From: Solobacterium sp. UBA3691
GTDB lineage: Bacteria; Bacillota_I; Bacilli_A; Erysipelotrichales; Erysipelotrichaceae
DNA length: 39,664 nt
Assembly: GCA_002372175.1 (NCBI GenBank)
Contig: DFIS01000080.1
Coordinates: 1-39,664 of the forward strand
Direction: 5' to 3'
Below, piece after piece: positions 6,221-16,627 of this stretch (position 1 is the stretch's first letter; each line of letters starts with the position of its first letter). The notes beneath the pieces are model-generated. The model ran no database searches and had not been told where the DNA came from. It saw nothing but the letters and a program-made list of their open reading frames with translations. Made by a program: the position numbers and the translations under genes.

Positions 6221-6290
6221 AGTATTCCTGCCATTTCTAAGCCCATGGGCAATCTATGGATATTGTACCAACGGATAAGAGAAAGAGGCA

Positions 6291-6325
6291 ATAAAACAAA
6301 ATACTCCTGTTGGACAAGAGTATTT
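6291..6325 (-). terminator. Weak candidate terminator between the island and the M16 peptidase gene
   Basis: On the minus strand, AAATACTC (pairs with 6318-6325), an 11-nt loop and GAGTATTT are followed by TGTTTTATT. The stem is AT-rich, so stability is low. Confidence 0.3.
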
Positions 6326-6553
6326 CTTTGCTGTCTCTCCCTGTTACTGCGGGACAGATATCGATTTACAGGACAATCAGCCACGGGGATGGGATGCATC
6401 ACATGACAAGTAACACAAACTTCTTCAATGCGTATTTCAGCAGAGAGTATCCCGCTAGATGTATGAAGAATTATCAAAAGATGATCAACTTCCGTACCGA
6501 TGCTCTAAGACATCATATTTCTTATTTAGAAACTGTAGAATTATAATTGCTGA

Positions 6554-9184
6554 TCAATTGATTTTCACCCACATAGCTGGACGGATCATGTACTCGTATT
6601 TTTGTTTAACAATCGGAGAATATCCATCAACGTATATACCATACAAGCCAATGCCTCCATCATGTACTCCAAAAGCAGCAGTATAAGGTTCTTGACCGGG
6701 CGAGCGCAGCCACCAATTAGAACCATTAGTGACATCGTTGACATAAACACCTTTCCCGAGTGTATATGGTGTTGCTTTTGCCAATCTTTCAGCATCAGAA
6801 TTAAAATACTGCTGAGCTTCCTGTATTGATAACAGGAATATCTTATCCTGTGTATCTTTTCCCGGATCTGTATTGTACTCCGGATTCTTGTCTGCTGTCA
6901 CAGTGCTTGTTTCAATGAGTGATTGTTCTTCACCGGTAAATGCTGATGAAATAAAATAACTATTCAACCATTTTCGAAGTGAACAAGTTTGCCATGTACC
7001 ATTCTCCCTTGATGTATCATATGGCTGACTGTCCAATCCGTATTCACTGATCAAAAGGATCCTGTTATCTTCTTTTGCTAAAACTTTCCATGTAATAGCT
7101 TCTTTGCCATTAGAAGTACTCGCATCCTGTTCATATGAACCAAATGTTACTATTTCTCCGGGCTTGGCAACCATAACTGTAACATACGGATTTTCTTCTC
7201 TAATAGATGCTGCCAGTTCAGCGCTGTCTTTATATCCATTCAAACCCATCAATATCTCATATGCGCCGGCATAATCTCCATTTTCTCGCATAGCAATTGC
7301 GGATTTATACTTATTGCTTGGAATTACCGTTGTTCTTATGATCACAAAAGCAACCACACAAAGAACCAAAACAGCAGTAACTATGCCAATTATGCTCTTT
7401 TTCTTTTTACGGGAGATTTCTTCCTGTTTTCTCTGAATCGCATACTGTCGCTCTATTTCTTTGCGATTCTCTTCTGTTAATCTGTCTATCTCCTTCTGGC
7501 AATACTCTGAATAACCGCCGCTTTCCTGATAACCCTTAAGCGAATCAAATACTGTTTTTGCTTTTTCAAAAGACGTTATATCTGTTGCGGCATTCATCGC
7601 AGTAATAGCTTGTGTATAGTCCAGATTTCTCCTTTGCTCTGCCTGCTCAGCCAATGCCTGCACTTCTTTATCTGCTTGTATAAGGAAAGCAGCATAATTA
7701 CTCTTCACCTTAGAAATACTGTTCTCATCTGTCTTTTTAGCAAGGGTGATACGCTCGTCCAAAATACGGTTTAATTCTGAGAGTTCATTTTCCAGCTTCT
7801 TCTTTGTTTCACCTTTAGCGTATTGTAATGCTCTGGTCAGATTACGTTCTGATTCCAATTCTTTTTGCAGCTTTGATTTTTGAATTCTTCTGCTTTGAAG
7901 ATAAGAGTCAAATCCAAGATCATATTGATATTGTCTCAGAATAGCTTCTCTGTCCAGGTATCCGTCAATACTGTATTTCTGTACTGCTGCATTAATATGA
8001 TCATTATCTTCCTGTCCTGCTTTTACTCGCTGGATGCCGGCATGTTTATACTCTTCTTTGTAATGATTAAACAAAGCTTCAAGATTTGGCTGACGGTTTT
8101 TCAGCAGAAGTTTTCCAAGATATGCTTCTGCAGATTCAGGCTCCTGATTCAGTGCTTCTTCAAAGAAACTATCGGCTTTATCCCATTCCTTGTCCTCAAG
8201 AGCTATCATGCCTCTTTTGACAAATGCCGAGGCACCACCTGAAGAATTGTTCTGAGTAACCGCCTTCTGAACAAACGGGGCTGCAGTCTCCTTTATAACC
8301 ACCTTTTTGATTCCACGAACCACATCATTGATAAATCCAATCTTACTCATGTCCTGTGCCTGGAGATGTGAGAATTCTTCAGGCAGGTCATATGCATCCA
8401 TATCTCTGTAGCAAGGAATCAGCAGCTTGGTACGGTCTTTTTTCATCAATTTCAGGAAACGTGACCATTCGTTCTTTACCCATACTGCATTGAAATACTC
8501 CGGTCTAGTGCCAATCACCAGCATTACTTTTGCTGTATTCAGTGCTGAGAAAATATACGGTTCATATTCTTTTCCCAGTTTATCTTCCAAAGTAATAGCC
8601 GCAAAGAATACTTTAAATCCTTCACGTGTCAGTTGGTAATAGATTTCATTGGCAATCACACTATCCTGTGTTCGTTTCCCAGATTCATCCGTCTCCTTAT
8701 AGCAGATGAAAACATCATATGGATCTTCTTTCTGTGCAAGGGCAAGGATTCCGCGCTGGATCTCATCGATCTCTTTAGCCTGAGCTTCATAGATTCCTCT
8801 TTGGGCAGTATCTGCGTAATATAATGCGTTCTTATAATCTTCATCCGCAGTGACTGATTCATATGACGCACGATGGCATGTCGGAACTCTCTTATACGTC
8901 ACCGGATCTTCAACATACTCAATACCGTACTTACAGAGGATAAGCCCCCAGTATGCTTCAGCTTCTGTTTCACTCCTCTGAAGGATCTTTTCATAGATCT
9001 CTGCTGCTTTATCAAACTCAGAGCGCATACGAAGCGTATTTGCTCTGTTGAAAAGCGTCTGCAAACCTTCATCATGAACAGAAGGAATTGTTTGTCTGGT
9101 ACCGCAGAACTCACATTCACATACCCTGCTTCCCTCTATAACGGTTAAATCACCGCCGCACATCTTACATTTCCATACCACCAT
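6554..9184 (-). CDS. Transmembrane TIR-domain protein: N-terminal Zn-ribbon, TPR-like region, TIR domain, TPR, long coiled coil, one TM helix, C-terminal DUF6273-like domain
   Basis: I moved the start to the ATG at 9184 (AAGGAG RBS 8 nt upstream); the track ORF starts at 9214. Zn-ribbon: CKMCGG...CECEFCG. TIR-like block: YDVFICYKETDESGK...AVWVKNEWSRFL, nt ~8315-8719, with the candidate catalytic Glu codon at 8468-8470. TM helix: KKKK-SIIGIVTAVLVLCVVAFVII-R, nt 7337-7396. The C-terminal domain has the SNWWLRSPG and RPAMWV motifs typical of DUF6273. Confidence 0.8.
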   Translation of the reverse strand: MVVWKCKMCGGDLTVIEGSRVCECEFCGTRQTIPSVHDEGLQTLFNRANTLRMRSEFDKAAEIYEKILQRSETEAEAYWGLILCKYGIEYVEDPVTYKRVPTCHRASYESVTADEDYKNALYYADTAQRGIYEAQAKEIDEIQRGILALAQKEDPYDVFICYKETDESGKRTQDSVIANEIYYQLTREGFKVFFAAITLEDKLGKEYEPYIFSALNTAKVMLVIGTRPEYFNAVWVKNEWSRFLKLMKKDRTKLLIPCYRDMDAYDLPEEFSHLQAQDMSKIGFINDVVRGIKKVVIKETAAPFVQKAVTQNNSSGGASAFVKRGMIALEDKEWDKADSFFEEALNQEPESAEAYLGKLLLKNRQPNLEALFNHYKEEYKHAGIQRVKAGQEDNDHINAAVQKYSIDGYLDREAILRQYQYDLGFDSYLQSRRIQKSKLQKELESERNLTRALQYAKGETKKKLENELSELNRILDERITLAKKTDENSISKVKSNYAAFLIQADKEVQALAEQAEQRRNLDYTQAITAMNAATDITSFEKAKTVFDSLKGYQESGGYSEYCQKEIDRLTEENRKEIERQYAIQRKQEEISRKKKKSIIGIVTAVLVLCVVAFVIIRTTVIPSNKYKSAIAMRENGDYAGAYEILMGLNGYKDSAELAASIREENPYVTVMVAKPGEIVTFGSYEQDASTSNGKEAITWKVLAKEDNRILLISEYGLDSQPYDTSRENGTWQTCSLRKWLNSYFISSAFTGEEQSLIETSTVTADKNPEYNTDPGKDTQDKIFLLSIQEAQQYFNSDAERLAKATPYTLGKGVYVNDVTNGSNWWLRSPGQEPYTAAFGVHDGGIGLYGIYVDGYSPIVKQKYEYMIRPAMWVKIN

Positions 9185-9265
9185 ACTTAAGTCTCCTTCG
9201 TAGTTTTCTGGCAAAAGCTATTCCTATTACATTTTTGGTTTATGATTCACCTATTTGTTATATTT

Positions 9266-15738: not shown

Positions 15739-15809
15739 GATGATCCCTCCATTTCCCCTTATAATTGATTAAGATTATCTATTTATCGCAATTCGCTCAA
15801 TCTGGACTA

Positions 15810-15979
15810 AAACGTGTACTTTTTTGCTTGGTAATATGTCTAAATCAAATTTTAACATATACCGCTCTTTATGCGCATAACAATAAGGTACTTAGAAGCT
15901 AATACTCACTGTTCAATAAGTACACGTTTGCAACACCCCCTCCTTTCCCGGGATTCTGTGTGCTCATGTGTACTTTTTC
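15810..15979. promoter_or_regulatory. Cluster of three AAGTACAC-core repeats (two inverted pairs) bracketing a promoter-like element; candidate recombinase site / invertible switch
   Basis: Copy A is aaacgtgtactttttt (15810-15825). Copy B is aataagtacacgttt (15915-15929) and is inverted relative to A, with a 12-nt perfect core and about 15/16 overall. Copy C is tgtgtacttttt (15968-15979), in the same orientation as A and sharing 11 nt with it. Between A and B the minus strand reads TGTTAAAAT (an extended -10; + coordinates 15849-15857), pointing towards the TIR gene start at 15738. Confidence 0.45.
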
Positions 15980-16567
15980 TGTGTTTTATTGCTTTATACC
16001 TGAAGGTAGATTTGGGCATTCCGCATAATTCTGCAGCTTTCCCCGTACTGATCTCTCCTGCATTCCAGCTTTGGCATACTCTTCCAAAAGCTTCCGGTAT
16101 CTCTTTCTCCGGTCTGCCGAAGCGTACGCCTCTTGCCTTCGCTGCAGCAATGCCTTCCGCCTGTCTCTGCCGTATATTTGCTCTTTCGTTCTCTGCCACA
16201 AAAGATAATACCTGCAGTACGATATCTGCCAGGAATGTTCCCACCAGATTTTTCCCCTTCTGGTATCCAGCAGAGGCATATCTATGACCACAATGTCTAT
16301 CTTTCTGTTCTTTGTCAGATACCTCCACTGTTCCTGGATCTCTTCGTAGTTTCTTCCCAGTCTGTCGATACTCTTGATGTACAGCAGATCGTCTTCTTTC
16401 AGCTCCCTGCATAAGTTAATATACGCAGGTCTGTCAAAGTCCTTGCCTGACTGTTTGTCTGTAAAGATGTTGTTTGGTGACACTCCGCAGTTGATCATCG
16501 CTGTAACCTGTCTGTCCTCATTCTGTTCTTTTGTACTGACACGTACATATCCATAGATTACTGTCAT
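15906..16567 (-). pseudogene. Small serine recombinase (resolvase/invertase family), disrupted by a frameshift
   Basis: The N-terminal catalytic domain ([16 protein letters not shown]...[10 protein letters not shown]...[11 protein letters not shown]) is in the frame of ORF 15986..16567. The continuation ([50 protein letters not shown] plus an [22 protein letters not shown]) is in the frame of ORF 15906..16412. The frame switch lies at the AGAAGGGGAAAAATC tract, + coordinates ~16246-16262. Confidence 0.8.
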
Positions 16568-16627
16568 GTGCGTCTCCTTCCGGTTCTGTGCAAGTACTCA
16601 TCCATGTTTTCTGCGCATGCATATATG

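Follow-up and report, generated by a model that had tools for sequence, protein, structure and literature searches.

A strain-specific, compositionally foreign island with TIR, HEPN-type, SPFH and membrane protein genes at a variable locus of a rumen Erysipelotrichaceae genome

The 39,664-nucleotide (nt) stretch of Solobacterium sp. UBA3691 analyzed here (assembly GCA_002372175.1, contig DFIS01000080.1; called the window below, at its full length) holds an AT-rich block of ~10 kb bordered by an M16C peptidase gene on one side and, on the other, by a 2-hydroxyacid dehydrogenase (DH) gene lying behind citD/E/F. Pfam recognizes two TIR_2 plus DUF6273 proteins, an SPFH protein (Band_7_1), and a gene with a Resolvase domain among the window's genes. 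On the minus strand the order of the cassette is TIR_R, a small open reading frame (ORF), SPFH, a membrane protein with four transmembrane (TM) helices (4-TM, or p229), p313, and TIR_L (Table 1). An original prediction made from the sequence letters had called the two TIR genes, the 313-amino acid (aa) gene, the 4-TM gene, a small serine recombinase, the M16C peptidase, and the DH gene next to citDEF, and all of these calls hold. Positions 6295 to 16481 are confirmed as a strain-specific, compositionally foreign accessory island of a rumen Erysipelotrichaceae genome. It sits at a hot spot of rearrangement, has a dead recombinase by repeat-flanked DNA at one end, and otherwise carries a conserved set of TIR, HEPN-type, SPFH, and membrane protein genes.

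Table 1. Features of the island and its borders, in window coordinates
Feature	Position	Strand	Basis or detail
M16 promoter-like site	6262..6291	-	TTGCCT, 18 nt, TACAAT, with TG; scan match
Island-specific segment, 10,187 bp	6295..16481		Absent from conspecific L106 and L118; blastn breakpoints
Terminator-like hairpin at left junction	6298..6326	-	13-pair stem and T-run; immediately inside 6294/6295
Decayed purF 3' remnant (amidophosphoribosyltransferase)	6339..6470	+	tblastn with L107 PurF; DNA 83-85% identical to L107 purF 3' end
TIR_L, 876 aa: CxxC zinc ribbon, TPR, TIR_2, coiled coil, one TM helix (aa 594-624), C-terminal DUF6273 (C-type-lectin-like)	6554..9184	-	Pfam, hydropathy
p313: predicted HEPN fold, N-terminal beta domain, R268 and H273 (RCxxFH)	9266..10207	-	
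p229: 4-TM membrane protein with cytoplasmic coiled-coil tail, SPFH partner	10278..10967	-	Hydropathy
SPFH/Band_7_1 protein, 616 aa: N-terminal zinc ribbons, three C-terminal 30-aa zinc-finger repeats	10970..12820	-	Pfam Band_7_1, 2.5e-37
Small ORF upstream of SPFH, 64 aa or 39 aa (internal ATG); coding status uncertain	12820..13014	-	Called as 64 aa in L098, 39 aa in L099
TIR_R, 861 aa: architecture of TIR_L without the TM helix	13153..15738	-	Pfam, BLASTP, hydropathy
Inverted repeats around a 90-bp segment, candidate invertible promoter	15810..15929		15810-15824 / 15915-15929, 14/15 complementary
Small serine recombinase (resolvase/invertase type), pseudogene	15906..16567	-	Pfam Resolvase split over two frames
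Third copy of the repeat core, inside recombinase 3' end	15964..15978	+	
DH terminator hairpin	16630..16672	-	Inverted repeat 16630-16643 / 16659-16672 and T-run; conserved in L106 and L118

The block stands out in its composition. In a 1-kb sliding window, GC content is 0.48-0.55 in both flanks and 0.34-0.47 between ~6.2 and 16.6 kb, and a 300-bp profile places the steps at ~6.2-6.4 kb and ~16.6-16.7 kb. A maximum-likelihood two-change-point fit, which assumes one island in a uniform background, returns a low-GC segment at 6158-16701 with a GC content of 0.401 against 0.513 in the background and a log-likelihood gain of 192 nats. Tetranucleotide usage correlates at r=0.93 among three flank segments and at 0.38-0.43 between the island and any flank. 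GC content at third codon positions (GC3) is 0.34-0.41 in the five cargo genes (TIR_L, p313, 4-TM, SPFH, and TIR_R) and 0.50-0.67 across all 22 flanking genes; because these ranges do not overlap, the shift is one of codon usage and not of amino acid content. The AT-rich block of ~10 kb that had been estimated by eye is therefore upheld by the GC, tetranucleotide, and GC3 profiles alike, with steps near the predicted edges. Among the flanking genes a 297-aa ORF at 29831-30724 is a mild outlier, with the lowest GC3 (0.50) and GC (0.47) of the group, and it lies within a short stretch where GC skew turns positive.

An artefact could produce such a picture, either through a chimeric assembly or as a composition effect of coiled coils rich in Lys, Glu, and Asn. 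The TIR proteins do contain long K/E-rich coiled coils, and the lowest GC of the block (0.31) falls there in TIR_R, but the GC3 gap is independent of amino acid content and the same junctions are present in several records. Five contigs from ENA, Logan, and JGI records (L002, L098-L101) match the window at 100% identity; across the island this holds for material from ERZ28612940, ERZ12302816, SRR5322845, and JGI 3300002641, while a fifth record, AUXO01, spans the right junction at 99.9% identity. Junctions that are identical in several records are not a one-off assembly error or the chimera of a single assembly. The GC3 gap and the shared junctions together refute the artefact, which keeps scarcely any probability. 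One AUXO record has a peculiarity of its own: in AUXO011700352.1 (L001 / L016), positions 413-3060 interleave citE, a citF fragment, a citE fragment, and citF, unlike the window, an arrangement that suggests either a mis-assembly of this one record or a duplication on a local scale.

Some of the usual marks of an integrated element are missing. No tRNA and no match to an Rfam family was found in the window, and there are no meaningful direct repeats around the island, the GGAGT microhomology at both junctions being all that the two ends share. Both the lack of a tRNA and the lack of flanking direct repeats had been noted in the original prediction, and within the window both stand. Megablast of the whole island against plasmids and phages gave no match. 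The island thus combines a foreign composition and codon usage with presence or absence by strain at the same site, and it is without a tRNA/tmRNA target with direct repeats and without a functional integrase or mobility gene.

Evidence for strain specificity comes from clustering and from related genomes. The flanking proteins fall in clusters to which NCBI gives the name Solobacterium sp. (MAGs), with RUG14114, an uncultured rumen Erysipelotrichaceae, as the GTDB representative. At 90% identity the M16 and citF clusters hold eight strain variants each, and every one of the six island proteins, the 193-aa recombinase fragment among them, forms a singleton cluster. Members of the M16 and citF clusters led to three other alleles of the locus. 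In L106 (GCA_017431245.1) and L118 (ERZ28654617), with flanks at 91-94% DNA identity to the window, the order is citD-E-F, DH, 380 bp, and M16. By blastn, L106 1-9825 corresponds to window 26295-16482 and L106 9927-15924 to window 6294-298, and L118 has the same breakpoints. These comparisons move the edges that had been proposed: an edge exists on each side, but the right one lies within the recombinase gene, at 16481/16482, and not at the DH terminator, and the left one lies at 6294/6295, so that the earlier coordinates were ~75-150 bp off. The second allele is found in L107 (GCA_045605565.1), 92-95% identical to the window, where DH is convergent with purF-purB-nadE-purA-purC, followed by M16, and 134 bp separate the facing stops of purF and DH.

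The island is therefore absent from L106, L118, and L107, all with flanks 91-95% identical to those of the window. In the third allele, that of the sister species represented by L108-L110 (~80% identical), GntR-citDEF-DH is shared with the window and synteny stops exactly at the DH stop codon. Broader scans added little: a GTDB scan with the M16 protein gave one conspecific contig, broken inside M16, with other relatives at ≤43% identity, and a metagenome scan with DH gave 80 loci, one of the same species, the rest being at ≤74% identity, without synteny, and with no empty site. The locus is a multi-allelic rearrangement hot spot that differs in almost every strain examined. Variation extends beyond the island site itself, as L107 1-2267, set against window 16678-22271, is without the entire GntR-citD-citE-citF group and has an NMT1-like gene and then DH directly; the citrate lyase operon is therefore itself strain-variable.

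The alleles allow part of the history of the site to be read. Past the DH terminator, L106 and L118 retain the ribosome-binding site and promoter of the recombinase and its first 28 codons, 92% identical to the window, which is about the level of the flanks. After this 28-codon stub come 101 bp of filler (L106 9826-9926 / L118 9450-9550) and then the M16 promoter region from TATTGCCTC. L106, L118, and L107 all retain a conserved region 6221-6294, so the M16 promoter-like site is common to island-free strains. A fragment of the recombinase must derive from a whole gene; the recombinase was therefore on site before the strains diverged, and both L106 and L118 are deletion derivatives. The scar has the same base in the two at 394/396 positions and therefore arose once. 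Strains in which DH and M16 are neighbors, the empty site that the original prediction looked for, thus do exist, yet judged by its sequence this "empty" allele is a secondary deletion scar and not a pristine site. The GGAGT microhomology was weighed as a possible origin of the deletion and set aside as insufficient, given the 101 bp of unmatched filler between the two copies.

The other end of the island preserves an older arrangement. In tblastn, aa 391-403 of the L107 PurF match 6339-6377 (85%) and aa 429-452 match 6388-6459 (67%). Since this purF remnant adjoins TIR_L, and since DH and purF converge in L107, the block from the recombinase to TIR_L fills what was formerly the convergent spacer between DH and purF. 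The lineage of the window later lost the greater part of the pur cluster from this position.

The recombinase gene at the right end is no longer functional. Pfam Resolvase positions 1-105 are read in one frame and 111-144 in another, the -1 frameshift falling in an A-run at ~16249-16257, so that no frame in the window joins the catalytic Resolvase domain to the C-terminal HTH; the truncated 193-aa product is also called on other contigs. A homologue in L119 (64% identity in the N-terminal part, 56% in the C-terminal part) is intact and in a single frame throughout, which fits the loss of one A from the run in the window. A blastn search of the recombinase against plasmids gave no match.

Repeats accompany the gene, located in the 167 bp between the recombinase and TIR_R. 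The core GTGTACTTWTT occurs exactly at 3 sites in the 39.6-kb window, all within 15814-15978 (165 bp), and with one mismatch at 7 sites in all, against a mean of 0.67 in shuffled sequence, where 0/100 shuffles reached 7. L119 offers an analogue: its homologous recombinase and its SPFH gene are separated by a stretch in which 145 bp lie between the arms of a 22-nt inverted repeat (20/22 complementary, core AGTGTACCTTTTGA). Beyond the repeat cores, global alignment of the recombinase-cassette spacers of the window and L119 found nothing similar. Because of this comparison, with its intact homologue and similar repeats, the recombinase is best read by analogy as having probably been a promoter-switch invertase for the cassette and not the enzyme that inserted the island. 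The small serine recombinase that had been proposed as the sole mobility gene is thus present, but it is frameshifted, has a host-like GC3, and is a more likely candidate for an invertase than for an agent of insertion.

The codon usage of the recombinase (GC3 0.48-0.55, against 0.34-0.41 in the cassette) leaves room for a different order of events. The recombinase could be an old resident of the spacer between DH and M16 into which the AT-rich cassette was inserted or swapped later, in the lineage of the window only, with L106 and L118 having lost some other cargo of which the filler is the last trace. L119 shows a parallel contrast (GC3 0.68 in the recombinase, 0.30-0.49 in the cassette), and the 5' end that the window shares with L106 and L118 at ~92% is flank-like; the unexplained filler and a mosaic of GC3 in locus L115, described below, which suggests piecemeal exchange of modules, would fit as well. 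A later arrival, however, needs two events where a single deletion suffices. The linkage of recombinase, inverted repeats, and cassette recurs in L119, which speaks for components that belong together, and everything from the recombinase to TIR_L fills one former spacer, since the purF remnant is found on the far side of TIR_L. Taken together, a separate and later arrival of the cassette is possible but doubtful, and a shared history in which one deletion produced the scar is preferred.

The proteins of the cassette are modular. TIR_L matches DUF6273 at 6e-30 and TIR_2 at 1.4e-11 in Pfam, with its start codon placed as in L002/L098, and TIR_R is 38% identical to it in BLASTP. The N-terminal module that they share (zinc ribbon, TPR, and TIR) belongs to a very large family, with at least 4273 clusters at 90% identity (E≤1e-20), mostly from gut and rumen Clostridia and named merely as TIR domain proteins of Clostridia or Ruminococcaceae. 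Across this module, two CxxC pairs, DxFIxYK, and WVKNEW show little or no variation. The glutamate of WVKNEW is invariant and presumably sits where the catalytic Glu of enzymatic TIRs is found (the W-x-x-x-E motif); in phmmer against the PDB, TPR matches were dominant and the TIR alignment was too weak for mapping a catalytic residue. One strongly hydrophobic helix, with basic residues before it, separates the N-terminal part from the C-terminal domain in TIR_L, in the L096 TIR protein, and in the L102 TIR-LRR protein. DUF6273 has been characterized as C-type-lectin-like and as a frequent target of diversity-generating retroelements (DGRs) in gut phage receptor-binding proteins (PMC10743442; bioRxiv 10.1101/2024.10.15.618418).

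The protein p313 is, on its sequence, a predicted HEPN-fold RNase. R268 and H273, which form an Rx4H motif, are invariant in 73 family members, gathered by an exhaustive HMMER scan where word-indexed searches gave 2-3 proteins. Its profile found nothing significant among PDB sequences and Pfam; the family had no members in viral contigs, and tblastn of p313 against plasmids gave no match. The SPFH protein has CxxC pairs at its N terminus. At its C terminus, three tandem 90-nt repeats (10979-11243) encode 30-aa zinc-finger-like units of the form TWDCxCGNKNIxGNFCNMCGxRRP, and L097 retains these repeats at 82% identity. The p229 gene begins 2 nt past the SPFH stop, and its homologues directly follow SPFH in L097, L102, L115, L119, and the plasmid pNP21. 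Directly upstream of SPFH, the counterpart of the small ORF in L102 (2351-2545) encodes an RHH/CopG protein (Pfam 4.7e-4). In the window the ORF resembles it faintly (DAKILDIP vs DAKKLVIP), without significant similarity, and could be either the decayed remains of a regulator or no gene at all.

This gene set is not peculiar to the window but recurs in at least five unrelated loci. One is L097 (GC 0.38), with the end of SPFH (82%), 4-TM (67%), p313 (63%), and TIR (47%). The group L102-L105 has RHH, SPFH (53%), 4-TM (27%), a TIR-TM-LRR_5 protein (N-terminal module 55%), and a p313-like protein (23%). L115-L117 combine an HTH gene, SPFH (54%), 4-TM (27%), a TIR gene, a TIR gene split from DUF6273, and a 301-aa protein with a weak match to PADLOC PDC-S31. 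In L119 the recombinase and inverted repeat pair are followed by SPFH (55%), 4-TM (25%), a 153-aa HEPN protein (RNGIAH; Pfam pEK499_p136, 3.6e-5), and TIR-DUF6273, and L096 has TIR-DUF6273, a 223-aa protein with RNEVIH, and SPFH (50%). Across these hosts the GC3 of the cassette stays at ~0.30-0.49, below the host genes (0.60-0.69) in the window and L119 and above its upstream genes (0.20-0.25) in L102, a steadiness that fits repeated horizontal transfer.

Individual loci show variations on the set. In L103 (ERZ28574657), positions 4494-8969 include two tandem 322-aa p313-like genes and a 2.5-kb gap in which no TIR gene is called; tblastn finds a TIR N-terminal module there, and the gap may hold a frameshifted or rearranged TIR gene. 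L115 is a mosaic over 2644-10560, where SPFH, 4-TM, and the TIR N-terminal module have a host-like GC3 of 0.49-0.53, and the second TIR gene, the DUF6273 part, and the 301-aa gene have 0.29-0.33, which suggests piecemeal exchange of the variable parts. In L096, a 686-aa Hsp70/MreB-like ATPase gene (7141-9201) lies just upstream of TIR-DUF6273, with a truncated HsdM fragment and two large serine integrases beyond it.

Endolysin or integrase genes of a prophage immediately precede the cassette in L096 and L119. A position next to a prophage is a typical place for defense cargo. These two contigs are also the only ones, out of 2.9 million viral contigs in IMG/VR, that contain the TIR module, which is therefore mainly chromosomal. 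The whole island could nevertheless be the decayed end of a prophage or another integrative element, with the cassette as its accessory cargo, since in both IMG/VR contigs the cassette is found just beyond endolysin and integrase genes. Such an origin is improbable, however: as far as examined, no phage structural, lysis, replication, or integrase gene is present in the island or the window, there is no DNA-level match to phage or plasmid records, att-like direct repeats are lacking, and two viral contigs in 2.9 million is a very small number.

A single explanation can be offered for the locus, namely an accessory island with a history in a convergent spacer, a content of switch and cassette, and a membrane-associated conflict or antiphage module as its cargo, and as a whole it is considered probable. 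For the part that makes the cassette a conflict or defense system, the balance of the evidence tips moderately in favor, and less so for the details of the mechanism. What we infer here is the defense role, the order of signaling, and the invertase switch. The recombinase and the 90-bp segment flanked by inverted repeats would have been a promoter switch for the downstream genes. The pair of SPFH and 4-TM proteins would form a membrane platform that holds membrane-anchored TIR sensors. TIR_L would be a single-pass protein, with zinc ribbon, TPR, and TIR in the cytoplasm and the variable DUF6273 facing outward as the sensor of an envelope-level cue. Once activated, the TIR domains may consume NAD+ or make a nucleotide signal, upon which the HEPN protein would cleave RNA and the infected cell would arrest.

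Several observations weigh against this explanation. No component of the cassette reaches threshold in the PADLOC or NCBIfam defense models, the best scores being an E of 1.2e-3 (16 bits) for PADLOC ThsB and 25.9 bits against a cut-off of 220 for NCBIfam ThcB4, and no known defense genes are neighbors in the window. The module also comes apart elsewhere, with the SPFH/4-TM pair alone and without TIR on the Butyrivibrio plasmid pNP21 and tandem TIR genes without SPFH in L112-L114. Hydropathy finds no TM helix in TIR_R, so the idea of an outward sensor does not extend to both paralogues. The segment 15825-15914 is in one orientation in all four contigs that cover it (L002, L098-L100), with no flipped copy seen. 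The host-like GC3 of the recombinase means that it and the cassette may not have arrived together, and for the 101-bp filler no match exists in the window or among the loci retrieved.

A function outside immunity would account for part of this. In Bacillus subtilis, YdjG (a zinc-ribbon TM protein), YdjH (a membrane protein), and YdjI (SPFH) form the SamGHI membrane stress sensor complex (PMC9239133; bioRxiv 10.64898/2026.02.06.704340). The cargo might likewise serve membrane-stress or cell-surface signaling, with SPFH/4-TM acting like SamGHI (YdjGHI) and the TIR proteins as scaffolds or as surface receptors whose lectin-like or LRR ectodomains would recognize glycans from the host or its diet. 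The combination of a Band_7_1 SPFH domain, zinc ribbons, and an adjacent membrane protein does resemble YdjG/YdjH/YdjI, the TIR N-terminal module family with its thousands of clusters is conserved at 65-77% identity, which is atypical for fast-evolving defense genes, and there is no PADLOC model match. A HEPN-type protein with an invariant Rx4H is nonetheless part of the cassette in three unrelated forms, which fits a toxic effector, and the strain specificity of the island, its foreign composition, and the position of the cassette at the ends of prophages also speak against this role. A constant N-terminal module that carries variable C-terminal sensors (DUF6273, LRR_5, and RCC1/WD40) is typical of conflict systems, and the island has no PspA gene. 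A nonimmune role is accordingly judged unlikely, and a conflict system remains the preferred reading of the cassette.

As an island the block is ordinary, a textbook case with defined junctions and a reconstructed history, and the interesting part is the cassette, which on the preferred reading is a new form of TIR-based conflict system. PADLOC-DB v2, NCBIfam, and Pfam have no system model for the gene set, and no paper was found that brings together SPFH, TIR, and phage defense in a literature search that was weak on subscription journals. A more specific and more tentative proposal is that the cassette represents a widespread, undescribed immune system of gut and rumen Firmicutes. Its sensors would be built like Toll-like receptors, with a lectin-like or LRR domain that is variable and extracellular, a single TM helix, and a catalytic TIR in the cytoplasm, and they would act on an SPFH/4-TM platform to trigger a HEPN RNase, with phase variation by a dedicated serine invertase at some loci. 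Such a system might detect phage, or some other threat, on the cell surface instead of in the cytoplasm. The receptor-like topology and the possible control by an invertase are the parts worth following. If the cassette is an immune system, it would add a membrane-anchored, surface-sensing class to bacterial TIR immunity, SPFH scaffolds would gain a role in defense, and a very common and unstudied protein family of the gut microbiome would acquire a function.

Compared with known systems, the island resembles classical genomic and defense islands in its atypical GC content and codon usage, its presence and absence among conspecific strains, its edge recombinase, its conflict-like cargo, and its place at a synteny break point. 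It differs from them in having no tRNA target, no direct repeats, and no functional integrase, and in that the "empty" allele is a scar. With Thoeris (ThsB plus ThsA) and 2TM-1TM-TIR systems the cassette shares an invariant TIR glutamate within a W-x-x-x-E-type motif, the encoding of TIR proteins next to membrane proteins and a putative toxic effector, and the presence of several TIR paralogues at a single locus. Unlike in Thoeris, the island proteins include no SIR2, SLOG, or Macro domain of ThsA, and HEPN is the effector candidate; the cassette TIRs, at 860-1100 aa, have a zinc ribbon, TPR, a TM helix, and domains of extracellular type, the set includes an SPFH/4-TM pair, and scores are far below threshold. 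The helical fold and invariant Rx4H of p313, and the smaller HEPN-motif proteins of L119 and L096, recall HEPN RNases such as Csm6/Csx1, HEPN-MNT, ApeA, and the AbiA C-terminal domain. However, p313 falls in no Pfam HEPN family, its N-terminal beta domain is not CARF or MNT, and it has no evident antitoxin-like partner.

The likeness to PspA-YdjGHI (SamGHI) is one of architecture, a cytosolic SPFH protein of the Band_7_1 type, a zinc ribbon, and a multi-pass membrane partner being encoded in one operon; here the zinc ribbons are fused to SPFH, no island protein has a PspA domain, and TIR and HEPN are coupled to the set. Serine-invertase switches (Hin/Gin and Bacteroides Mpi) have in common with two of the loci a small serine recombinase with an N-terminal catalytic domain by a short segment that is bounded by inverted repeats upstream of genes. 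The window recombinase differs in being frameshifted, in an NCBIfam Mpi score far below the cut-off, and in the third repeat copy within its own gene. Unlike in DGR-diversified DUF6273 proteins, no template repeat for either DUF6273 3' end is present in the 39.6-kb window, and here DUF6273 is joined to a TIR module through a TM helix. The C-terminal DUF6273, with its C-type-lectin-like character, links the cassette to the receptor-binding proteins of gut phages and to the C-type-lectin (CLec) sensors of bacterial conflict systems, and the fusion of sensor domains to effector domains is a known theme (PMC10907252).

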